From a virus (taxonomy: Duplodnaviria; Caudoviricetes), in the IMG/VR virus record IMGVR_UViG_3300033076_001145, positions 32,001 to 96,000 of that record: a stretch of DNA of 64,000 nt. One strand, given 5' to 3'. Of the stretch, positions 3,974-64,000 are shown one piece after another (positions within the stretch are counted from its first letter, which is position 1; every line of letters begins with the position of its first letter). The notes under the pieces are model-generated. The model was not told the origin of the DNA. It saw only the letters and a program-made list of their open reading frames with translations, and searched no databases. The position numbers were made by a program, and so were the translations under genes.

Positions 3974-4571
3974 AATTAATGGGGTTCTTCGTGACACAAT
4001 TGGAAAATTCAAAATGTGTTATGAGAAATTTCTAATGCCGAATGAATACAACTTAGAGGAAGTTCAGGATTTTGAATACAAGATATCTGAACCAATTGAC
4101 TCTTTGGATTTGAAAAAACACTTTTCATTTAATGATGATGAAGAGTTAATTGAATTTATGTACGAGGATTGTCCAATGGAAATTTTTGGTCATGCTATGT
4201 CTTCTGAAATGATGTCATTTAATTATCTAAATGATTTTTATAATGAACATAAATATGAAAATGAGATTTATATTATTTCTGATGAAGTTGGGAAGTCCAA
4301 ACCGGCAACTTTATTTTTCCTATCTAAATTTAGTTGTTTAATTGAAAATTATATTTTTTATAATGAAAAAAATAAAAATCAAATTTTATCTAATTTTGAT
4401 TTAGTTGTTACATCAAACCCAAACATTATCATTGACAAAAGAAATGAATTAAATATAATTAAATTTAATACCGAATATAATAAAGAAATAAACCACGAAT
4501 TTGAAATTTCCTCGTTATCCGAACTTTCAAATGTATTAAAAAAAATTACAGATGTTAAAACTATTCAATGA
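3957..4571 (+). CDS. HAD-fold 5'-nucleotidase-like protein with degenerate motif I
   Basis: N-terminus KIGIEINGVLRD resembles the NT5C-type xDxDGVLxD motif but reads ExN. Confidence 0.5.
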   Translation: MKIGIEINGVLRDTIGKFKMCYEKFLMPNEYNLEEVQDFEYKISEPIDSLDLKKHFSFNDDEELIEFMYEDCPMEIFGHAMSSEMMSFNYLNDFYNEHKYENEIYIISDEVGKSKPATLFFLSKFSCLIENYIFYNEKNKNQILSNFDLVVTSNPNIIIDKRNELNIIKFNTEYNKEINHEFEISSLSELSNVLKKITDVKTIQ

Positions 4572-15457: not shown

Positions 15458-15846
15458 TCAAAAATCTCTTTTTCTTTTTTCTTATTTTTTTTAATAAAAA
15501 GTTTTGTAACTTCTCCAGACTTCGCGTTTGCAAAATTTTCGGATTCCCCTCCAATATCCTTTCTATCTTTAATATTTAATTTTTCATGGTCATACGCATG
15601 AGCCCACTCGTGTGACAGAGTTCTTAATACATCCGCAAACATTCTCCCCTTAAATAAAATACGAATTCTGTCTTTACCATTATTATATGAACCTGTAGTC
15701 ATGTCTTTAGTTTTTTCGTCTAATAACATTATTTTTAAATCATTCTCTAATGGCATTTTAGTTTGTAATAATTTACAAAATTTTTTTAAAAGTTCGAGTT
15801 GAGTTTTTTTAACCGTATTTTTTTTATATTTAAAACAAATTTTCAT
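15454..15846 (-). CDS. zincin-like metallopeptidase (HExxH)
   Basis: VLRTLSHEWAH...SENFAN. Confidence 0.65.
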   Translation of the reverse strand: MKICFKYKKNTVKKTQLELLKKFCKLLQTKMPLENDLKIMLLDEKTKDMTTGSYNNGKDRIRILFKGRMFADVLRTLSHEWAHAYDHEKLNIKDRKDIGGESENFANAKSGEVTKLFIKKNKKKEKEIFD

Positions 15847-16540
15847 TTAAAGTCGATAATATTTTTTTTATCAAAATCTCTTCATTAGTCTTTTTCTTTT
15901 TGTAAGAAACCATTTTAGGCTTATTACCTGTACCACTCTTAGGATTGGTTTTTTCAGCTCTTCTTTTTTGAGCACAAGCGGCCTTTTTTTGAGAATCGGT
16001 CATTTTACCTGCAACTCCCGCAGCTCTACATTTAGGATAACCTTTATCTTTTGCTTCAGGTCTTCCACAAGGTGGATGTTTTCCATCTACTTTTCTACAA
16101 ATATTAACCCATGGACCTTTAGGTTGCTTACTACCCTTAGGTTTCTTTTTAGTTCCAAACCATACTCCTAAATCTTCATTAACAAATGGTTTAGATGCAT
16201 CTTTAATTTTTAAAGAATTACCATTATTTAATATATCCCCATCATCATCGTTTTGTATAGGGTGTTTTGACATGTAGTTACTAATTTTTTCAGATTTTTT
16301 CTCCATTTTTTTAATTTTATTTTTTGGAGTATCCATACTTCCATCATAACTATCATAAGCCAATTCCGAGTTATCATATTTTGATACTGGTTCATTGAAT
16401 GGGGATAACTGTGACTTTTTAAATTTTCTAAATCCCGGCATTATTGGAGCACTATAAGAACCTCTTCCTGCGGAGTCCGCAGTCGACTCATTTACAGGAC
16501 TAAATACCTTATTGATTATCTCATTAATATTTCTTATCAT
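15830..16540 (-). CDS. leader-bearing protein with basic Cys-containing module
   Basis: MIRNINEIINKVFSPVNES; after VNE: DLGVWF...WVNICRK...CGR....YPKCR. Confidence 0.7.
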   Translation of the reverse strand: MIRNINEIINKVFSPVNESTADSAGRGSYSAPIMPGFRKFKKSQLSPFNEPVSKYDNSELAYDSYDGSMDTPKNKIKKMEKKSEKISNYMSKHPIQNDDDGDILNNGNSLKIKDASKPFVNEDLGVWFGTKKKPKGSKQPKGPWVNICRKVDGKHPPCGRPEAKDKGYPKCRAAGVAGKMTDSQKKAACAQKRRAEKTNPKSGTGNKPKMVSYKKKKTNEEILIKKILSTLNENLF

Positions 16541-18754: not shown

Positions 18755-20245
18755 TTATTTTATTATTTTTGACATAATGTCTTTCATTCTCAGGAATTGA
18801 GGATTTTCATATGTTTTTGATTCAATCAAATTAACTGATGAACCTGACTTTTGGTCGGTATCAATAATTCTTTCAATTGATTCAGTAACAGGTTTTCTCA
18901 CATCTTCTCCTGACAACTCATCTTTAATTGTTTTATAAAGAGCTTTAGACTCTTTAATAGTTTCTGCAGAATCAAATCTTCTCAAAATGTTAATTTTTTC
19001 TTGCTTAGACGTTGAATGTTCTGTGAACAATCTTGTAGCATATGCCAAATTAGAATTAAATATAGCAACTTCGTTAAGTTTATCTCTAAACATATTTAGA
19101 GCCTTTCTATATTCTTCATTTTTAGCCTTTAACGTTTCGACTTCTCTTTGAACTGACTCGGTGTGTGTTCTCGCACTTTCTTGTCCTGCTCTTGCACCTT
19201 TTTTCAAAGCTCCTTTTCTCCAACCTGTACCATAAGTACGAGCCGCTTCGGTAGCTTCTTCTTTAGATAATTTGATACCTGTTCTACTTGGCATTTCAAA
19301 AGTTTCACCTTCTTTAAATTCGAATTTCGCTTTACCCATACCAACACCTTTAGTACCTTGTTTCATCTTTTCTTTGAATCCTCCTGTAGATTTTTTATAT
19401 GAGAATTTAGAAGCCGAACCTGTCTTAGCTCCTTTACCTACTTTAGGTTTAGAAGATAATTTAGATTCATAAACGTTATCCATTTCTTCTAACTCGTCTT
19501 CATCATTGTCATCATCTGTAGCGTCCAAAGCAATTTCATAAATTGTTTCATCCATTTCTTCTTCTGACCATGACTCATCCATTTCATCATACTCTGATTC
19601 ATACATTTCTTCTGAATCCTCTTCCATTTCGTCTTCTTCGTGCATTTTTGACTTAGGAACAAACATTGCGTCTTTTGTATTTGACTTTACTTCTTTTTCT
19701 TTCTTCTCTGATTTTTCTTCGAATAATGAATCATCCATATCATCAAAATCTTCTTCGTCTTGGATTATGTATTCTACGTCTTCAGAATCATCAGTTAAAT
19801 GAATATAATCACCGTCTTTTGTTACTGTGATTTCATCTTCAGCTGACATTGCTTTGAAAACTTTCAATACTTCCTCGTCAGAAGCGTCAGTTAAGTCAAT
19901 GGTTTCATCATCCATATCAATGTCCATGTCATTCATACCCATGTCGTCAGAATCGTCATCGTCCATGTCCATGTTATCCATGTCCATTTCTAATTCGTCT
20001 TCATCATCACCTGAGATTTCCATGTCATCCACATCAATTTCGTCAGAATCTTCATCTTTGTCGATATCAATCATTTCGATATCGTCTGATTGTTCATTAG
20101 TCTCATTTTTCATAGACTCTTTTACTAATTCGCTAATTTCTTCCTTCATTGTAGAAGCAAGTATTTCTTTTGCGTTTTCGTTAATAACCTCTTCCAAATT
20201 TTGAATTTGGATTAATGTTTCTTCAACTAAATTTTTTTCTGCCAT
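18755..20245 (-). CDS. prohead scaffold/core protein
   Basis: Directly upstream of the MCP; very acidic centre, coiled-coil C-terminus, many [ILVM]-x-E sites. Confidence 0.8.
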   Translation of the reverse strand: MAEKNLVEETLIQIQNLEEVINENAKEILASTMKEEISELVKESMKNETNEQSDDIEMIDIDKDEDSDEIDVDDMEISGDDEDELEMDMDNMDMDDDDSDDMGMNDMDIDMDDETIDLTDASDEEVLKVFKAMSAEDEITVTKDGDYIHLTDDSEDVEYIIQDEEDFDDMDDSLFEEKSEKKEKEVKSNTKDAMFVPKSKMHEEDEMEEDSEEMYESEYDEMDESWSEEEMDETIYEIALDATDDDNDEDELEEMDNVYESKLSSKPKVGKGAKTGSASKFSYKKSTGGFKEKMKQGTKGVGMGKAKFEFKEGETFEMPSRTGIKLSKEEATEAARTYGTGWRKGALKKGARAGQESARTHTESVQREVETLKAKNEEYRKALNMFRDKLNEVAIFNSNLAYATRLFTEHSTSKQEKINILRRFDSAETIKESKALYKTIKDELSGEDVRKPVTESIERIIDTDQKSGSSVNLIESKTYENPQFLRMKDIMSKIIK

Positions 20246-20577: not shown

Positions 20578-21297
20578 TTATTTTCCTAAATAATCGTTTA
20601 ATTTATTCATTAAATCAAGTGATTTTAATCCACCTCTCTCTAAATTTTGTAATTTTTCCTCTTGTAGATTTTCCTCAAATTTGTATTGGTCATCTTTTTC
20701 TTTGAATAGGTACGCTCCAGGTGTGGATGGTGCTTGGACTAAGTCAAAACAGATTAATTCAAAGTCGTCCTGAACTTCGTTTTGTTCTCCCACTTTTTTT
20801 AATGAACCAACACCTCGAGATGATATACCCAAAGTGACACCAAGTCTTAATAGATTAGCCGCTTGGTCTCCCTTTGTAGATACAATACCTCTTTCATGAA
20901 ATCCTGGTGACGTTAATAATTTTAATTTACCAATTAAAATATTTTTATCCCACCAAATATCAGTTATAATATGAGATACTCTATCCAAATCAATTAATGA
21001 TGATTCGGGGTGATTAAGTTCAGACAATGCTGTATTTTTCTTAATATAATTTTTAGTATAGTTATCTGCTTCTCTTTTTAATACTCTTTCAGGATATATT
21101 CTACCATTTCTATTCGGGGTATTAAACTTTTGTAACACCGCATAAAACTCAAATGGTTTAGAATAATCACCCACTTCGAATGATTCTTTTATTATTCTAT
21201 CATTAGAGAATTCAATGGGTGACACATACCCTGCGTCATATTCAACAAGAATTCCCTTACCCGTATCTTTTGGCCCTAAAATTTTATAATTTTGCAT
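20578..21297 (-). CDS. prohead protease (T4 gp21-like)
   Basis: NRNGRIYP, ELNHP, LDRVSHII, GISSRGVGS, FDLV..PS.PGA. Confidence 0.95.
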   Translation of the reverse strand: MQNYKILGPKDTGKGILVEYDAGYVSPIEFSNDRIIKESFEVGDYSKPFEFYAVLQKFNTPNRNGRIYPERVLKREADNYTKNYIKKNTALSELNHPESSLIDLDRVSHIITDIWWDKNILIGKLKLLTSPGFHERGIVSTKGDQAANLLRLGVTLGISSRGVGSLKKVGEQNEVQDDFELICFDLVQAPSTPGAYLFKEKDDQYKFEENLQEEKLQNLERGGLKSLDLMNKLNDYLGK

Positions 21298-44440: not shown

Positions 44441-44791
44441 TTAGAATAGTTGAGGTTCAGGTAATTCATTGTCACCTGAGGAGTAATATTCATTTAGAAA
44501 TAGTTTTAGTTCGGTCTCGTCGATGATATCCTCCTCGTCAGTTTCATCATCAAAAATAAATTCGTCAGTTTCTTCTTCGTAACTAAAGTTAAATTCATCT
44601 GAATCAAAATCACTATTATCTAAAAGTAAAAATCCGTAGTCTTCCGCTACGGATAATTCAAATTCAGTTTCACGAATATATTCGTCAGAATCCCCTTTTA
44701 CTCTAAATGATACTTTAACAGTTTCTATTTTACTGTTATAATAATAATCAACTATTTCTTTGATTAACATTAGATTAGTCTTTTGAACCAA
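44441..44791 (-). CDS. acidic hypothetical protein
   Basis: ORF; true start may be ATG at about 44770. Confidence 0.65.
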   Translation of the reverse strand: MVQKTNLMLIKEIVDYYYNSKIETVKVSFRVKGDSDEYIRETEFELSVAEDYGFLLLDNSDFDSDEFNFSYEEETDEFIFDDETDEEDIIDETELKLFLNEYYSSGDNELPEPQLF

Positions 44792-45195
44792 TTCAATGAC
44801 TCATTAATTTCTTTAACTACTGAGTCTTTTTTGCTTTTTATTTTGATGCTTTCTTCAATTTGTTCTTCTGAATACATTCCAGTACCACATTCGTTACACT
44901 CATCTTCCATCATTTCTTTTTCTTCACCACACTCACACATGTCGCCTTCATATAAGTTACCACACTCATTACATCTTGATTTCATAGGTTGGTTAATTCC
45001 AGTGTTTTTGTATTCTGTAACATCACCTTTAGCACTAACAGTGATACCGCCAGAATCCTGAGCCAAGTTCTCAACTTGTAACGGAGTCATATTACCTTTT
45101 GGTTGCATAACCTGATAACCGTCATATTGTTCTCTATGTTTTTCTGTGATAGATTTTTTCTCTTCTTCAGATATGTTTAAAAAATAAGCTTTCAT
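44770..45195 (-). CDS. leader-bearing protein with CxECG repeats
   Basis: MKAYFLNISEEEKKSITEKH; CNECG/CECG/CNECG. Confidence 0.7.
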   Translation of the reverse strand: MKAYFLNISEEEKKSITEKHREQYDGYQVMQPKGNMTPLQVENLAQDSGGITVSAKGDVTEYKNTGINQPMKSRCNECGNLYEGDMCECGEEKEMMEDECNECGTGMYSEEQIEESIKIKSKKDSVVKEINESLNWFKRLI

Positions 45196-49032: not shown

Positions 49033-49059
49033 AAAAAGGGATTTAAAATCCCTTTTTTT
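49031..49059. terminator. bidirectional terminator
   Basis: A7-GGGATTT-a-AAATCCC-T7. Confidence 0.75.
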
Positions 49060-49984
49060 ATTGTTGTGGTTTAACTTGTTCTTTTCCAGGGGTAATCTGA
49101 TTATTATATATTTTCTCGGCCCTAGGTAAGAAAACATTTTTATAAACACTTGGTAATTTTTCCAAAGCCAATTTAAACTCGTCTAATGATAAATCGGTAA
49201 TTAATTTTTCATTACGATAATAAGGTCTTGGAGAATTGGTAACTTTACCCGTATTTGGGTTAATTAATTTAAATGCGGGATTTACTGGTGAAGGGGTAGG
49301 TAAATAATATTTTGTTGGAGGGTCGGTTCGGTTATCTATTAAATAACCTAAAACAACATTTCGAGTATCCGGAGTTGATTTCTCAAAAGCTCGATACTCA
49401 ACGGGGGTTAGTTCCCAATCCGCAGTAGTTAATTCTATCGTATACGGCTCCAATTTACTCTTTTGTTTAATTTCTACCGGAACATCTTTTTGTCGATATT
49501 CAGCATTTAATTTTATTCTAAAATACTGATACTTAACACCTTCACCTTGTTGTATTTTTTTATCCTCAGTAATTGTGATGTTTTTTAATATTTCAGGATT
49601 AATTTTTTGATTTAATAATCCCATGATATAATTTTTTGCCGATACTAATCTCTCGTTAGCTAATTCTGCATTTCTTTGTTTTGAACCGCTTGTTGATGTT
49701 GAAGCTTCAATGGTCATATTAATTTTTTTATTTTCCCATTTATTGTCTTCTAAAATTTTTGACATCTCATCAACCTTTTTATTCAACACATCCAATTGTT
49801 CTTTTGGTAAATCACTAATTTGACCTTTATTTGTTGGAAAATATGCTGGTATTACTCCACTATCCCAATTTTTTACCGTTTCAACTTCCTTTTGTTCATT
49901 CAAATAAAATTTCTTGGTCGCATCGATATGCATACCCAATATTCTTTGTTTCTCACTTTCATTTATCTCAAATAAATTTTTCAT
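49058..49984 (-). CDS. leader-bearing protein with OmpA-C-like domain
   Basis: MKNLFEINESEKQRILGMH..LNEQ; YF......I.IEAST...G...N.ELA..R......Y. Confidence 0.55.
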   Translation of the reverse strand: MKNLFEINESEKQRILGMHIDATKKFYLNEQKEVETVKNWDSGVIPAYFPTNKGQISDLPKEQLDVLNKKVDEMSKILEDNKWENKKINMTIEASTSTSGSKQRNAELANERLVSAKNYIMGLLNQKINPEILKNITITEDKKIQQGEGVKYQYFRIKLNAEYRQKDVPVEIKQKSKLEPYTIELTTADWELTPVEYRAFEKSTPDTRNVVLGYLIDNRTDPPTKYYLPTPSPVNPAFKLINPNTGKVTNSPRPYYRNEKLITDLSLDEFKLALEKLPSVYKNVFLPRAEKIYNNQITPGKEQVKPQQ

Positions 49985-59152: not shown

Positions 59153-59704
59153 TTACTGAACCATGGTTTGATATTTCCTACCACATATGAATAAATTATT
59201 CTTAAACCATTTTGCAATATCATTTGAATAATACTCATCCCCAACATCGGTTTGTCTCATTTTTGAAACTTTTTCACTTCCTTTAACTGTTGTATTGGTT
59301 ACACTGTCTTCAATCCCTGCGTAATCAGGATTTATTTTTGGTTTGTTTAATAATTTAAAAGTATTTGCCTGACAATCAAATTCAAACATTATTTCTCCAA
59401 GATATTTTGGGTTATCAGTCCCTTCCTCTAATGTTCCTGAGATTCTTACAGTTTGTAATCCTTTAGATGTGATGACTTCAACTTTTTTTAAATGAACATC
59501 CAAATTTTGTTCTCTGTTAAACATTCTTTTCTTCTCAATGAAACCATATTTAGGGTTTGTTTTTAATAACGAATTAATTCTATCAGTTCTTAACGTAGTT
59601 AATTGGTCCGCTTGTTCAGAAACCAATGATTGTTTCACTGCCGTTCTATGCATTTCGAGGATTCTATTTTTCTCGTTCTCTTCAACTAAAAATATTTTTT
59701 TCAT
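59153..59704 (-). CDS. leader-bearing protein; paralog of the C-terminal domain of 59726-60925
   Basis: MKKIFLVEENEKNRILEMH..LVSEQ. Confidence 0.72.
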   Translation of the reverse strand: MKKIFLVEENEKNRILEMHRTAVKQSLVSEQADQLTTLRTDRINSLLKTNPKYGFIEKKRMFNREQNLDVHLKKVEVITSKGLQTVRISGTLEEGTDNPKYLGEIMFEFDCQANTFKLLNKPKINPDYAGIEDSVTNTTVKGSEKVSKMRQTDVGDEYYSNDIAKWFKNNLFICGRKYQTMVQ

Positions 59705-59725: not shown

Positions 59726-60925
59726 TTATTGAGTTTTATTTAAACCACACAATTTTAAATTTGTTTTTAATAGTTTGTAAAAATCAGTATTTGCATATTC
59801 CCCAAATCTTTTTCCTAATGGTAATGATTTTTGGTCAACCACACCCGCATCAGTAACTAATTCGTTAGGATAATCCAAAAGTTCAAAATACCCAAATTCA
59901 TCGCATTTTAAAATTATTGCAACTTTATCTTTGTAATTAGTAAAATCTCCAATAACAACGCAACTATCTAACCCTTCATCCTTAGTGATTATTATGTTTT
60001 CAATTTTAACCTGAATATATTTTTGGGTATTATTTTTTTTCCTAAATGTTAATAATCTTTCAGTTTTTAATAGGTCCTCAATAATCTTATCCCTCCATCC
60101 TTTTTCTTTAGGTTTAGGGGGTTCAGGTTTATCTAATAATATTTTCATGGAGTTTATTCCACTAATTTGAACAGTTTTAGGATTATATCCTTCCTTTTTG
60201 ATTGTTATTGTAATTGGAAATTTGAAGTCGTTATTTTTGAAGGTGTCATTATTAATTATAATTTCTTCTCCATTATAATCGGCAACCACATTATTTATTT
60301 GTTGGTCTGTTACTTTATCATAAACTAAAATATTCAACGGTTTTAAATTAAATGAATATTCGATTGGGTCCCCATTGAAATCTATAAATTCAATTTCATA
60401 ACCTCTCTTCAAAATTTTTATTTCAGAATTTTTTTTGATTCCTGATTTTTTAAATTTTCCGTTTTCATCTGTCTCACCTATAATCTCTTTACCGTCGTTA
60501 CCTGTGTATATAATTTTTACTTTTGGTAATGGAGAACCCTTTTCATCATTAACCACTAAATTAATATCGTTTTGTTCCTGTATATCTAATGTTTTTAATT
60601 CGTCAGAAGTTAAAGTAATATTGTAATTTGTTTCAGTTGGACTTAATTCTTGTTGGTAGTTTTTATATCCGACAAATCCAACTCCAAATTTTGAACTTTG
60701 TGGTGTTGTGGTAATTGTTGCTTGTCCTTCACTATTTGTTGATGTTCCGTCAATCGCCTTTCCTTCTGAATTATAAATTATAACACTTGCACCGGGTATA
60801 GTCTCTCCATTATCTGATTTAACAGTAAATGTTACACTTTTATTGGATTGTTCATTCAACAAATTCTGATACAAATTCAGAATCTCTTGTCTTTCATTCT
60901 CAGTTATTAAAAATTTTTTAGACAT
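59726..60925 (-). CDS. leader + carboxypeptidase-regulatory-like (SusC N-terminal-like) repeats + C-terminal domain
   Basis: MSKKFLITENERQEILNLY..LLNEQ; GETIPGASV...GT.T..EG...FVGY; ETDENGKF...GYE. Confidence 0.72.
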   Translation of the reverse strand: MSKKFLITENERQEILNLYQNLLNEQSNKSVTFTVKSDNGETIPGASVIIYNSEGKAIDGTSTNSEGQATITTTPQSSKFGVGFVGYKNYQQELSPTETNYNITLTSDELKTLDIQEQNDINLVVNDEKGSPLPKVKIIYTGNDGKEIIGETDENGKFKKSGIKKNSEIKILKRGYEIEFIDFNGDPIEYSFNLKPLNILVYDKVTDQQINNVVADYNGEEIIINNDTFKNNDFKFPITITIKKEGYNPKTVQISGINSMKILLDKPEPPKPKEKGWRDKIIEDLLKTERLLTFRKKNNTQKYIQVKIENIIITKDEGLDSCVVIGDFTNYKDKVAIILKCDEFGYFELLDYPNELVTDAGVVDQKSLPLGKRFGEYANTDFYKLLKTNLKLCGLNKTQ

Positions 60926-60963
60926 ATATCTTATAAATACATATTTTATTGTAAATTTGTAGT

Positions 60964-61470
60964 ATGAATATTTTCTTTTTGGATTGGGATACTGAAAAAT
61001 GTGCGAAATATCATTGTGATAAACACGTGGTTAAGATGATATTGGAAACCGCTCAATTGTTATGTGGTGTCCATCATATGACCCCCCAAGTTACCCACCA
61101 AGTAACCCCCCAAGCGCCCTACAAGTTATCCCACAAGAATCATCCTTGTGCGATTTGGACACGTGAGTCACTGTCTAACTATTTGTATTTATGTGACCTT
61201 GGGTTGGAGTTGTGTAAGGAATACACTTACAGATACGGAAAAAGACATAAATCACAAGATGTGATTGAATGGTGTTTAAGTAATCGACCAAATATTCATG
61301 ATGTTGATTTCACCACCCCACCATTGGCGATGGGAGATGAGTTCAAAATTGGTGATGATGTTATTGAGTCTTACCGAAATTATTATCGAGAAGCCAAATC
61401 AGGGTTTGCTGTGTGGAAAAATAGGGAGGTTCCAAATTGGTTTATAACATCCCCTGAATTTCATTCATAA
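60964..61470 (+). CDS. pyrimidine-dimer DNA glycosylase (DenV/Pyr_excise)-like family protein
   Basis: MNIFFLD, HCDKHVVKMILE.AQLL, H.NHPC.IW, EYTYRYGK.H, YRNYY. Confidence 0.7.
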   Translation: MNIFFLDWDTEKCAKYHCDKHVVKMILETAQLLCGVHHMTPQVTHQVTPQAPYKLSHKNHPCAIWTRESLSNYLYLCDLGLELCKEYTYRYGKRHKSQDVIEWCLSNRPNIHDVDFTTPPLAMGDEFKIGDDVIESYRNYYREAKSGFAVWKNREVPNWFITSPEFHS

Positions 61471-61624
61471 TCACCATTAGTTGAGTGTTTAGTTTTGAAA
61501 TTCTTTGTTGTTGAGTTTCGTTTAAATCAATACTCTCACCTTTAATCGATTGGATTTGATTTGAGATTTTTGTATGTTCCCCTAACAGATAGTTATACCT
61601 TTGAGCCTTTTGTTCATTATTCAT
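61442..61624 (-). CDS. small coiled-coil hypothetical protein
   Basis: 60-aa ORF. Confidence 0.55.
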   Translation of the reverse strand: MNNEQKAQRYNYLLGEHTKISNQIQSIKGESIDLNETQQQRISKLNTQLMVIMNEIQGML

Positions 61625-61653
61625 GATACTATAATAATAAATTAATCTAAAAA

Positions 61654-61770
61654 TTAAATTTCTTTTTTAATTTCTTTCAACACTTCAAAGTTTTTTTGAA
61701 TCTGTTTCATTCTCTTTGCGAAATTTGCTCTGTTTCTTGTTTTGTTTTTTGGTTTTCTTGCCTTTGACAT
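61654..61770 (-). CDS. 38-aa basic peptide (not in the ORF track)
   Basis: MSKARKPKNKTRNRANFAKRMKQIQKNFEVLKEIKKEI*; TATTTAT upstream. Confidence 0.55.
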   Translation of the reverse strand: MSKARKPKNKTRNRANFAKRMKQIQKNFEVLKEIKKEI

Positions 61771-61808
61771 AATTTTCTTTTTTCGATAAATAGTGTTATA
61801 TTTGTATT

Positions 61809-62336
61809 ATGAAAGATTTGACTTTTAAAAAGAAAGGTATTACTCACTCACCATTACAGTTTTGGGAGATTGATAAAAAATATAAAATTGCAATTTATCA
61901 GGGAGGTAGAGGTGCTCGTCCTGATTTAGATTTTATTGTAAAATATAAAGAAGAAGGTAAAAGACTAAGAACTCCATCACACACTCATTGGATTGTTGAT
62001 TTAATTGCAAAAGCCCAATACGACAAAGGTAGAGTAAAGTCATATGTTGAGGATATGATTAAAGTTTATGATGAGTGTGAGCCATTTAAAAATGAGGAAG
62101 ATAGAAATTCATATAAATTACAATGTCCTACAAAGATGTGGGCTAACCACATTATGCTAGAGGATGTAGGTTATTATCCATTACAGGTTCTAACTGCCTT
62201 TATTGAACTATTCTCCAAATGTGAAAAACAAACTCCTGGTGCGTTTATGTTCAGAAATTTACTTGTGTTGGTAAAAGAATACTGTGAGGGTAAGAAAGAT
62301 TTTTATCAAATTGTAGGATACTCTAAAAGAGTTTAA
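61809..62336 (+). CDS. hypothetical protein
   Basis: TATATTTG 4 nt before the ATG; RLRTPSHTHWIVDL. Confidence 0.7.
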   Translation: MKDLTFKKKGITHSPLQFWEIDKKYKIAIYQGGRGARPDLDFIVKYKEEGKRLRTPSHTHWIVDLIAKAQYDKGRVKSYVEDMIKVYDECEPFKNEEDRNSYKLQCPTKMWANHIMLEDVGYYPLQVLTAFIELFSKCEKQTPGAFMFRNLLVLVKEYCEGKKDFYQIVGYSKRV

Positions 62337-62656
62337 TTATCAAAATTTTTGCGTTCATCATACCATCCTCTTGTTTTCTCATAATGTTCGACTGTTGAGT
62401 GACTTGAGATAACTCTTCCTGAAAAATTAAATGTTCTATTTACAGTCCTAACAAGTTCTCTACCCCAAGAGTGTAGGTTGTCAGATTCATCTTTAGAGAA
62501 TGGTTTTTTAAATAATATAGTTATGCGACACATAATACCATATTGACTTTCATACACATCAACAGCAGCACCTGCGTAATTATCACTCAAAGGATAATCA
62601 TCAAGATAAACTTCCACGAAGTTTTTTATTACCAATTCTAATTCTGTGGGTTCCAT
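62333..62656 (-). CDS. hypothetical protein
   Basis: ORF preceded by both motifs (TATATTTG-TATTTAT). Confidence 0.65.
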   Translation of the reverse strand: MEPTELELVIKNFVEVYLDDYPLSDNYAGAAVDVYESQYGIMCRITILFKKPFSKDESDNLHSWGRELVRTVNRTFNFSGRVISSHSTVEHYEKTRGWYDERKNFDN

Positions 62657-62666
62657 TTAATATAAA

Positions 62667-62710
62667 TACAAATATAAACAAAAAACCCCTCTTTATGTGT
62701 GAGGGGTTTT
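62667..62710 (-). promoter_or_regulatory. terminator fused to a TAnnTTTG promoter
   Basis: AAAACCCCTC...GAGGGGTTTT hairpin; 25-bp near-copy of 58095-58119. Confidence 0.65.
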
Positions 62711-62730
62711 CAAAAATGAATTTAAACTTA

Positions 62731-62880
62731 TTATTCGTTCTCAGACAATGGTTTAGCGTCTCCAAGTTTGGTATTAACAAGTTTATTAAAATTTTCAATC
62801 ATTATTTTTTTTCCTCCAGTGTGTTGTTCACGGATTCTATTTTTTTCTTCCTCAGAAAGGTCGTTCAATAAGTGTTTCAT
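62731..62880 (-). CDS. 49-aa leader-only gene (not in the ORF track)
   Basis: MKHLLNDLSEEEKNRIREQHTGGKKIMIENFNKLVNTKLGDAKPLSENE*; TATTTAT upstream, terminator downstream. Confidence 0.7.
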   Translation of the reverse strand: MKHLLNDLSEEEKNRIREQHTGGKKIMIENFNKLVNTKLGDAKPLSENE

Positions 62881-62921
62881 AGTATTTTTACTTTCTATAT
62901 AAATATATAGAAAAACAGAAA

Positions 62922-63422
62922 TTACTCCCCATCTTCATACTTATACTTTAGAAGAACAGGTGGAGTAAAACTCATATCATACTCCTCAAGTTGTTTTTTA
63001 TACTCATCAATTCTTTCACGAGAATAAATAGGGGCAAAAAGTGGTTGTCTATTAAACGGAACATTGTCTCGGTTTTCCCACTCCTCAAGTTCCTTTTCCA
63101 TTTCAGGAATACTATTTGTCAAATAATTCCATTCTTTCCAAGAATTATAATCATCTTCTGACTTGATGTAAAACACATTTCCATAGTTATACATATTCAA
63201 ATCAGGGTTGGTGGTATAAACATCCACAATTCCTTCTTCACCATCATAACGAATACATAATTCATTAACGGAATATGAATTTTCATGACGCTCAGTCCAA
63301 TTCCTACCATAAGAACGAACTTTACATATATACAAAAATCCATCAGGTGTGGAACGAAGGTAACTTTCAATCTCGTTTTTCAATTTTACGAGTTCGTCAA
63401 AGGTGTAGTCAGATAAATTCAT
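62922..63422 (-). CDS. hypothetical protein
   Basis: Start reassigned to the ATG 4 nt after TATATTTG. Confidence 0.7.
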   Translation of the reverse strand: MNLSDYTFDELVKLKNEIESYLRSTPDGFLYICKVRSYGRNWTERHENSYSVNELCIRYDGEEGIVDVYTTNPDLNMYNYGNVFYIKSEDDYNSWKEWNYLTNSIPEMEKELEEWENRDNVPFNRQPLFAPIYSRERIDEYKKQLEEYDMSFTPPVLLKYKYEDGE

Positions 63423-63438
63423 AGGGCAAATATATAAC

Positions 63439-63473
63439 AAAAATCCCCATCAATCAAATGACAGGGATTTTTT
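63439..63473. terminator. terminator adjacent to a TAnnTTTG promoter
   Basis: AAAAATCCC...GGGATTTTTT. Confidence 0.55.
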
Positions 63474-63474
63474 A

Positions 63475-63675
63475 TTAGTTAATTCCTTCGTTGAATTTTT
63501 CTTCAATTTCTTTTAGTTCTTCTTCGGTAAAATCATCATCGTGTTCAATTTCTTCAACCCAAGTGTTATGTCCATCATAACGAGCAACAATAGTAAATTC
63601 TCTACCGTCTTCAGTTGTCCCGTCATAACTTTTAAGACAGAACATCAATATTTCATTTTCAAAATCAATATTCAT
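63475..63675 (-). CDS. small acidic hypothetical protein
   Basis: 66-aa ORF. Confidence 0.6.
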   Translation of the reverse strand: MNIDFENEILMFCLKSYDGTTEDGREFTIVARYDGHNTWVEEIEHDDDFTEEELKEIEEKFNEGIN

Positions 63676-63677
63676 AA

Positions 63678-63956
63678 TTATTCAAAATTACATTCAAATT
63701 CATTGTTTGTAATTTTTTCTCGTATGATTTCAGCTTGATTACACTCTTCCCAAAGAGATTCATACCACTCTTCGTTGGTTGATTTCATATCACTCCAATT
63801 TTCTGAAATGTATTCTTGCATTTCTTCTTCGGTCATTCCGTTAAGTTCAGGATAATCTTCCACATTAATCTCAACGGGTTCTTTAACGAGCATTGTGTTG
63901 TAATACTCAACCATTCTCACGGAAATGGTTTTTGGTGTTTCTGTATTTTCTGGCAT
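63678..63956 (-). CDS. small acidic hypothetical protein
   Basis: 92-aa ORF. Confidence 0.65.
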   Translation of the reverse strand: MPENTETPKTISVRMVEYYNTMLVKEPVEINVEDYPELNGMTEEEMQEYISENWSDMKSTNEEWYESLWEECNQAEIIREKITNNEFECNFE

Positions 63957-64000
63957 AATATTATTTTTTATAAGTGTAAAAAACGGAAATTAATATGTCA

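Follow-up and report, generated by a model that had tools for sequence, protein, structure and literature searches.

A cargo-less 49-residue gene of an uncultured T4-like jumbo phage consists of a conserved N-terminal module found in front of many unrelated proteins

The ORF of 49 aa located at positions 62731..62880 (minus strand; the span includes the stop codon) belongs to an uncultured jumbo phage of the T4-like type and, judging from its conservation, is a real small gene that is translated. Its product is nothing but a 47-residue N-terminal module that in other proteins is followed by a large variety of unrelated bodies (cargoes). The window, i.e. the whole stretch of 64,000 nucleotides analysed, corresponds to bases 32001-96000 of a 208,634-bp IMG/VR virus record that has a GC content of ∼30% and a completeness, as estimated with CheckV, of 71%.

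Short homologues of the ORF were retrieved from a search of 5.8 billion proteins. They form 64 clusters (defined at 90% identity, and occurring on many contigs) of 47-83 aa that are 60-91% identical to it, align without gaps over residues 1-47, and then either end or continue into short, variable, charged tails of low complexity. The stop codons of these short forms were checked directly in contigs L003, L012, L027, L037 and L038. Values of dN/dS were computed over codons 1-43 for pairs in which both members were cargo-less. When the window was compared with L003, dS was 0.80 and dN 0.060, which renders a dN/dS of 0.074 (binomial p 1.2e-5); for L027 and L038, the values were dS 0.80, dN 0.029 and dN/dS 0.036 (binomial p 5e-7). 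Pooled pS/pN values were 0.69/0.14 for short-short pairs and 0.68/0.15 for long-long pairs. Identity at the protein level was 88-93% across phages with near-saturated synonymous sites; since the latter are close to saturation, it is the protein that is under constraint rather than an element of the RNA or DNA. Lack of conservation, one of the outcomes that a preliminary description of the region had named as refuting its reading, was not observed: there are 64 short clusters, and purifying selection acts within the short-form lineages (dN/dS 0.04-0.07). The 49-aa protein matched zero Pfam-A families at E≤1 and zero PHROGs v4 families at E≤0.1, and its neighbours in the ESM Atlas were unnamed viral clusters only. 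Among 50,697 phage records, megablast of positions 60000-64000 gave no true match and tblastn of the 49-aa peptide gave only noise (E ∼5-8) in Microbacterium phage terminases, the module being absent from every cultured phage in this collection; no relatives were found in 185,579 prokaryote species genomes.

The gene bears its own expression signals. The ATG at 62880 is the sole start codon in the stop-to-stop frame, and the coding sequence finishes with the TAA at 62731; the C-terminus reads ...G-D-A-K-P-L-S-E-N-E, and the two-residue tail N-E together with the tandem stops TAA TAA occupies 62728..62739 (minus strand). The TATTTAT sequence noticed earlier upstream of the gene is part of a promoter-like motif, TATTTATA, located at 62898..62905 (minus strand), 17 nt 5′ of the ATG. 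Its enrichment is orientation-specific: genome-wide, 44 out of 65 copies lie 0-40 nt 5′ of a start codon on the same strand, as compared to 12 out of 65 in the reverse orientation. Of 30 distinct alleles of the 49-aa gene family, 27 have TATTTAT at a distance of 11-19 nt from the start codon on its 5′ side, and the same upstream motif precedes the genes for the scaffold-like protein, the prohead protease, the portal and the large terminase, as well as many leader-bearing genes. Over the whole record, the spacing between TATTTAT(A) and the ATG falls into two classes, 3-7 nt and 11-20 nt (examples are found in the window at 62656-62670, 42456 and 54101). The 11-20 nt class occurs at head genes and at genes with leaders of the type termed class B; the 3-7 nt class, to which the next gene belongs (62333-62656; TATTTAT(A) only 4-5 nt before its ATG), implies leaderless or near-leaderless mRNAs.

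The downstream hairpin mentioned in the preliminary description was located 20 nt past the stop, at 62681..62711 (minus strand). It has the features of an intrinsic terminator, with a CCCCTC...GAGGGG core, an 11-bp stem (-15.7 kcal/mol; z = -3.55 relative to shuffled sequences) and a T6 run thereafter. GC-rich terminator hairpins of differing sequence follow five out of six short alleles; those equivalent to the hairpin in the window lie 3′ of the short alleles of L003, L027, L037 and L038. The interval between stop and terminator contains no cargo remnant. Read-through or frameshifting into a downstream body was rejected in view of the TAA TAA stops, the terminator and the fact that only ∼75 nt separate the ORF from the next gene. 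Gene fission, in which the downstream 107-aa gene would be a detached cargo, was rejected as well, the 107-aa gene and its neighbours matching none of 292 cargo bodies. An antisense ORF of 58 aa (62695-62871, plus strand) overlaps the leader gene; it is conserved at 57-67%, as compared with 88-93% in the leader frame, and can therefore be considered a shadow of the real gene.

AlphaFold2, run with the family alignment, predicted with modest confidence (pLDDT 68, pTM 0.25) two helices, spanning residues 10-21 and 29-39, and a disordered tail. The first predicted helix lies in the segment of residues 8-21 (L-S-E-E-E-K-N-R-I-R-E-Q-H; 62818..62859, minus strand), which also holds a first hydrophobic-x-Glu (h-x-E) motif, LSE, at residues 8-10. 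The second one (residues 29-39, E-N-F-N-K-L-V-N-T-K-L; 62764..62796, minus strand) comes after a break at the invariant G22-G23. Residues 38-47 (K-L-G-D-A-K-P-L-S-E; 62740..62769, minus strand), disordered in the model, form a putative recognition and cut cassette for the prohead protease, with the cut expected after E47. When the conservation of each position was measured over 280 distinct leaders, K13, N14, I16, R17, E18, Q19, H20, G22, G23, F31, L34 and G40 were at least 98% conserved, and K38, K43 and P44 were 91-95% conserved; at position 50, conservation had dropped to 19%.

Four other proteins of the window, with start codons at 45195, 49984, 59704 and 60925, have the N-terminal motif h-x-E-x-E-K-x-R-I-x-x-x-H; no further copy was found in the 208-kb record. 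All four are encoded on the minus strand and carry the first-helix part of the leader. They comprise a protein of 141 aa counted from a MKAYF start (44770..45195), one of 308 aa in which the leader ends in YLNE and is followed by an OmpA-like body (49058..49984), one of 183 aa with a leader ending in LVSE (59153..59704), and one of 399 aa with a leader ending in LLNE and followed by CarboxypepD_reg/Big-like domains (59726..60925). PLSE as such was not found in the other leaders of this genome, their common feature being hydrophobic-x-E. The preliminary description regarded the ORF as purely a class-B leader. It is indeed a leader alone, ending in KPLSE-NE, but the match to the class-B paralogues concerns only residues ∼8-20, that is, the first-helix region. 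The label does not suit the leader as a whole, since the conserved module comprises residues 1-47 and its second half resembles another leader type. An HMM of the first half of the module matched two paralogues of the window, of 153 and 183 aa, at their N-termini (E = 0.003 and 0.009, marginal), and one of the second half matched the N-terminus of a 199-aa protein encoded 58-657 nt past the end of the window (G000:C1:96058-96657, minus strand; E = 0.007, marginal), the segment recognized being R-F-F-N-L-M-E-S-T-I-G-D-V-R-P-L-I-T-E. The half-module matches have marginal scores, yet each lies at the correct position, and the module looks composite.

A total of 455 longer proteins of 87-2000 aa open with the module. 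Over their first 45-49 residues they reach 98% identity with the ORF, the identity over the ∼47-aa module being 80-98%. An exhaustive HMMER profile search of 1.84 billion representatives retrieved 711 clusters at 50% identity, 666 of them with E≤1e-10. Among the 150 proteins listed, almost every profile match started at residue 1; those in which it started later look like cases of upstream start-codon calls. No relationship remains between the sequences beyond the boundary, K-P-h-(x)-x-E: 292 cargo bodies were distributed into at least 96 families with no BLAST relationship among them. The cargoes are folded domains of 50-270 aa, and ∼95% of the bodies have no Pfam domain. Among 146 leader-bearing proteins from metagenomes, the Pfam matches were to tRNA-synt_2 (one protein, 2.9e-15), Annexin (one), Tudor-like (one) and PG_binding_1 (two); the body of P0200 we take, by eye, to be lytic transglycosylase-like. 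The leader was 87-100% identical in cases where homologous cargoes were 39-78% identical, and nucleotide identity was ∼78% in the module and fell to background directly after it. The preliminary description had suggested looking for orthologues that run into cargo after PLSE, and more than 450 longer homologues do so, with many different downstream domains following KP-h-x-E. Since the ORF is conserved under purifying selection and its homologues are fused to many bodies, the leader can be regarded as an autonomous module, as had been proposed.

The hydrophobic-x-Glu motif at the boundary between module and cargo (positions 45-48; L-S-E at residues 45-47 in the window ORF) was present in 239 out of 240 cargo forms, as compared to 34 out of 53 short forms (Fisher p = 6e-15). 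Being near-invariant in the presence of a cargo and less so in its absence, it appears to be tied to having something to release, although h-x-E is a short motif and its near-invariance with cargo could reflect some other role at a domain junction. The cut motif was degraded in the remaining 19 of the 53 short forms, i.e. 36%, which indicates that cleavage is not essential to whatever the short alleles do. The cassette K-L-G-D-x-K-P-L-x-x-E recurs between the domains of three larger relatives (P0185, P0186 and P0241), which is what a portable cut site would show. In a 593-bp ENA contig, a single frame (P0128) joins a signal peptide and a CarboxypepD_reg domain to residues 8-49 of precisely the ORF of the window, including K-P-L-S-E-N-E. 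Its front part is the N-terminus of a TonB-dependent receptor, typical of Bacteroidota; P0128 is most likely an assembly chimera, though it could hint at the phylum of the host.

In related contigs, the leader gene is found just downstream of the orthologue of the 166-aa gene of the window (62922-63422), in a slot whose content varies. It holds a 143-aa cargo form in L006-L008 and L014-L015, a 147-aa cargo form in L025, a 152-aa cargo form in L031-L035, and a short form of 48-49 aa in L027, L038 and, after an insertion of three genes, in L003-L005. Gene content around the slot is rearranged between related phages. The leaders of L006 and L014 share 89% identity with that of the window, while the neighbouring 166-aa protein shares only 52-59%. 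L038 carries two leader genes, a 134-aa cargo copy and a cargo-less 49-aa copy; they lie at 1026-1430 and 4001-4150, flanking the 166-aa gene and three further small genes. Genes in the vicinity start with other recurrent leaders (MKKIVKLSESD... and MKIIITESQ...). The cargo of L025 is 47% identical, over 96 aa, to the C-terminal half of the 199-aa protein adjacent to the window, whose leader differs. Homology to a body located behind a different leader indicates that cargoes move between leader types.

The head genes of the phage (16.8-24.4 kb), which lie about 40 kb from the 49-aa gene, are arranged as in T4. The portal gene (phrog_213) is followed by two small ORFs (233 and 150 aa), the gene for a gp21-family protease, that for an acidic scaffold-like protein, and that for a gp23-type capsid protein (phrog_138). 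The relatives of this capsid protein belong to T4-superfamily phages, Flavobacterium phages among them. The T4 gp21-type prohead protease (Peptidase_S77; 20578..21297, minus strand), presumed to be the processing enzyme, matches PF03420 with 90.6 bits, over the cut-off, and phrog_207 (8e-46). The capsid protein contains L-I-N-E followed by S-S-S-T-A-D-S-G, ∼35 residues before a V-Q-A-M-N motif. This is mirrored in a very basic 236-aa protein encoded directly downstream of the capsid gene (15830-16540, minus strand), in which V-N-E is followed by S-T-A-D-S-A-G; this protein has four hydrophobic-x-E sites, contains an internal K-P-F-V-N-E cassette, and resembles either an internal (ejected) protein of the T4 kind or a protein of the core. 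The scaffold-like protein (18755-20245, minus strand) has at least 7,997 homologous clusters, which shows this phage clade to be very abundant; its C-terminal 130 residues, almost invariant, are a candidate docking surface for the leaders.

The explanation we favour, at roughly even confidence, is that the module is a long, composite capsid-targeting propeptide similar to the CTS of T4, which in this gene is produced on its own and probably serves as a small peptide of the prohead core or as a filler. The two helices would dock the precursor into the assembling prohead core, and the gp21-type protease would cut after the Glu of the h-x-E cassette (E47 in this case, possibly also E10), an event that would release the cargo inside the head. 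The cargo-less product, whose gene has a late-type TATTTATA motif in front and a terminator of its own, would enter the core and lose at most its last two residues. It would act as a small, transient core or filler peptide, and also as a rival of the cargo-bearing leaders for loading sites. Docking at the prohead, the cut after E47 and what the cargo-less product does are what we infer from these features. The tie between the boundary motif and the presence of cargo, the recurrence of the cassette and the fact that the late-type motif is common to head genes support the T4-CTS-like model. A more far-reaching version, which we put forward only tentatively, is that an abundant clade of uncultured T4-like jumbo phages possesses a polymorphic head-cargo delivery system based on one highly constrained 47-aa composite leader, made up of docking helices and a portable protease-site cassette. 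In this system, hundreds of unrelated, mostly orphan effector domains would be loaded into the capsid for ejection into the host, and the conserved tag-only genes would provide trans-acting stuffers or competitors that determine the amount of cargo taken up, or else minimal core subunits. Three options had been offered in the preliminary description for the lone leader. That of a small core peptide seems to fit best. That of an acceptor cassette agrees with the variable slot, yet can only be a by-product and not the selected function. That of a remnant left after cargo loss is disfavoured by the dN/dS values and by the promoter-like motif and terminator kept in four independent short alleles.

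A related possibility is that the gene is an emptied allele, that is, a leader-cargo gene that lost its cargo, by deletion or recombination, in a hypervariable slot and persists without function, either because it is harmless or as a substrate for recombination (an acceptor cassette). The cargo-bearing alleles present in the same slot of related phages and the rearranged gene content around it would agree with this, as would the short, variable, low-complexity tails; degradation of the cut motif in over a third of the short forms is also what would be expected if there were no cargo to release. However, within lineages that are already short, the first 43 codons evolve at dN/dS 0.04-0.07 with dS ∼0.8, and the pooled pN and pS values are the same as in the cargo forms. 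The abundance of short clusters on many contigs, the upstream motif and terminator conserved in the four independent alleles, and the clean interval between stop and terminator speak against it too, and we consider such a functionless allele unlikely. A similarly low probability can be assigned to the module being an N-terminal adaptor unrelated to the capsid, which would recruit variable effectors to another conserved partner (for instance a phage chaperone, a protein of the host, or a site on the tail or baseplate), the cargo-less form acting as a regulator or competitor. Polymorphic effectors in general combine an invariable N-terminal part with a C-terminal part that varies, no known CTS approaches the module in length or conservation, and some cargoes are directed to the cell wall (PG_binding_1, and P0200 with its transglycosylase-like appearance) and could equally sit on a tail. 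Nevertheless, the boundary motif is of the class for which the gp21-type protease encoded by this phage would be specific and is near-invariant only with cargo, the same cassette occurs inside the basic protein adjoining the capsid gene, and the upstream motif is common to head genes.

Two further readings carry little weight. The pattern L-S-x-x-E...I...G-G superficially resembles that of double-glycine leaders and, in a small ORF with its own promoter-like motif and terminator, might point to the precursor of a bacteriocin or a small RiPP in which the short C-terminal part is the core peptide. This was rejected, and is very improbable, because conservation runs 25 residues past the invariant G22-G23 and cargo divergence starts only after residue 47-48, instead of directly after G-G. 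In the double-glycine consensus, the spacing of hydrophobic residues before GG does not match that of the module; furthermore, the other leader paralogues have no GG, the cargoes are folded domains rather than short peptides, and prokaryote genomes yielded no relative. As for an untranslated frame that is open by chance in AT-rich intergenic DNA, the ORF is short, lacks Pfam and PHROG matches and is overlapped by an antisense ORF, but its protein-level conservation across phages with near-saturated synonymous sites, the low dN/dS and the much lower conservation of the antisense frame exclude this for practical purposes.

If the module is a capsid-loading tag, the several hundred proteins that bear it can be listed as candidates for ejection (effectors against host defence, for the cell wall or for takeover of the host), most of them without a known domain, from a very abundant group of uncultured jumbo phages that, to judge from the names of the metagenome samples, may be of marine origin. 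It would also provide, beside the T4 CTS, a second, longer and better-defined targeting-and-release cassette for packaging foreign proteins in phage heads. The way in which proteins reach the scaffolding core in T4-type phages is still called mysterious (PMC9958956), and a nearly invariant docking module of 47 residues would be a better handle on this process than a 10-residue tag. The cargo-less genes pose the question of whether the protein content of the head is tuned by a tag-only peptide acting as competitor or filler.

Several known systems combine a constant tag with variable cargoes. The cargo-loading peptides of encapsulins are short conserved tags that send many unrelated cargoes into a shell with the HK97 fold; they are C-terminal and uncleaved, operate in cellular compartments, and are not homologous to the module. 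Polymorphic toxins, also not homologous to it, have a constant delivery part and a variable payload and act via secretion systems. If the more far-reaching version of our reading is correct, the tag-only genes would represent a class of stand-alone capsid-targeting peptide; to our knowledge, no stand-alone CTS-only gene has been described for T4, nor do we know of a description of conserved tag-only genes. In phiKZ-like giant phages, the N-terminal propeptides of ejection and inner-body proteins (phiKZ gp175 and SPN3US gp245) are long, sometimes have several x-E sites, and are cleaved at S/A/G-x-E or A-x-E (PMC5694885). As in the present case, there are paralogues with identical N-termini and diverging bodies (PMC5694885), and the protease is a distant relative of gp21. 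That protease, however, belongs to subfamily S80 and prefers small rather than hydrophobic residues at P3, and a single portable module fronting ∼100 cargo families, or a gene without cargo, is not known among these propeptides. T4 gp67 and gp68 are small prohead proteins, incorporated into the scaffolding core in hundreds of copies; gp21 degrades or clips them, after which they exit from the head (PMC9958956, PMC5694885). A small core protein is the role proposed here for the cargo-less product; nevertheless, the 49-aa protein has no sequence similarity to them (no PHROG or Pfam match), and its gene is not placed between those of the portal and the protease but far from the head module.

The closest parallel is the CTS of the T4 proteins IPI, IPII, IPIII and Alt (Mullaney & Black 1996, as cited in PMC3012670, PMC9958956 and PMC8442874). 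It consists of 10 residues, MKTYQEFIAE, is removed by gp21, and the proteins tagged with it compete for packaging (PMC8442874). The protease cuts after Glu in hydrophobic-x-Glu contexts (PMC8442874, PMC5694885), Alt being cleaved at ITE-6 and LTE-619 (PMC5694885). The internal proteins of T-even phages are diverse, with the CTS as their sole common part (PMC3012670), and their loci are polymorphic (Repoila et al. 1994, as cited in PMC3012670). The module differs from the T4 CTS in being 47 rather than 10 residues long, with two predicted helices and a separate cut cassette, and in showing no demonstrable sequence homology with it; the T-even CTS, moreover, serves a handful of cargoes, whereas at least 96 families and 666 clusters are involved here. 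The first ten residues of both fit M-K-x5-(I/L)-x-E, a stretch too short for statistics. Like the T4 CTS, the module is an N-terminal tag common to unrelated, fast-evolving cargoes in hypervariable slots, and its last residues form a hydrophobic-x-Glu site such as proteases of the gp21 family cleave, an enzyme of this family being encoded by the phage of the window.
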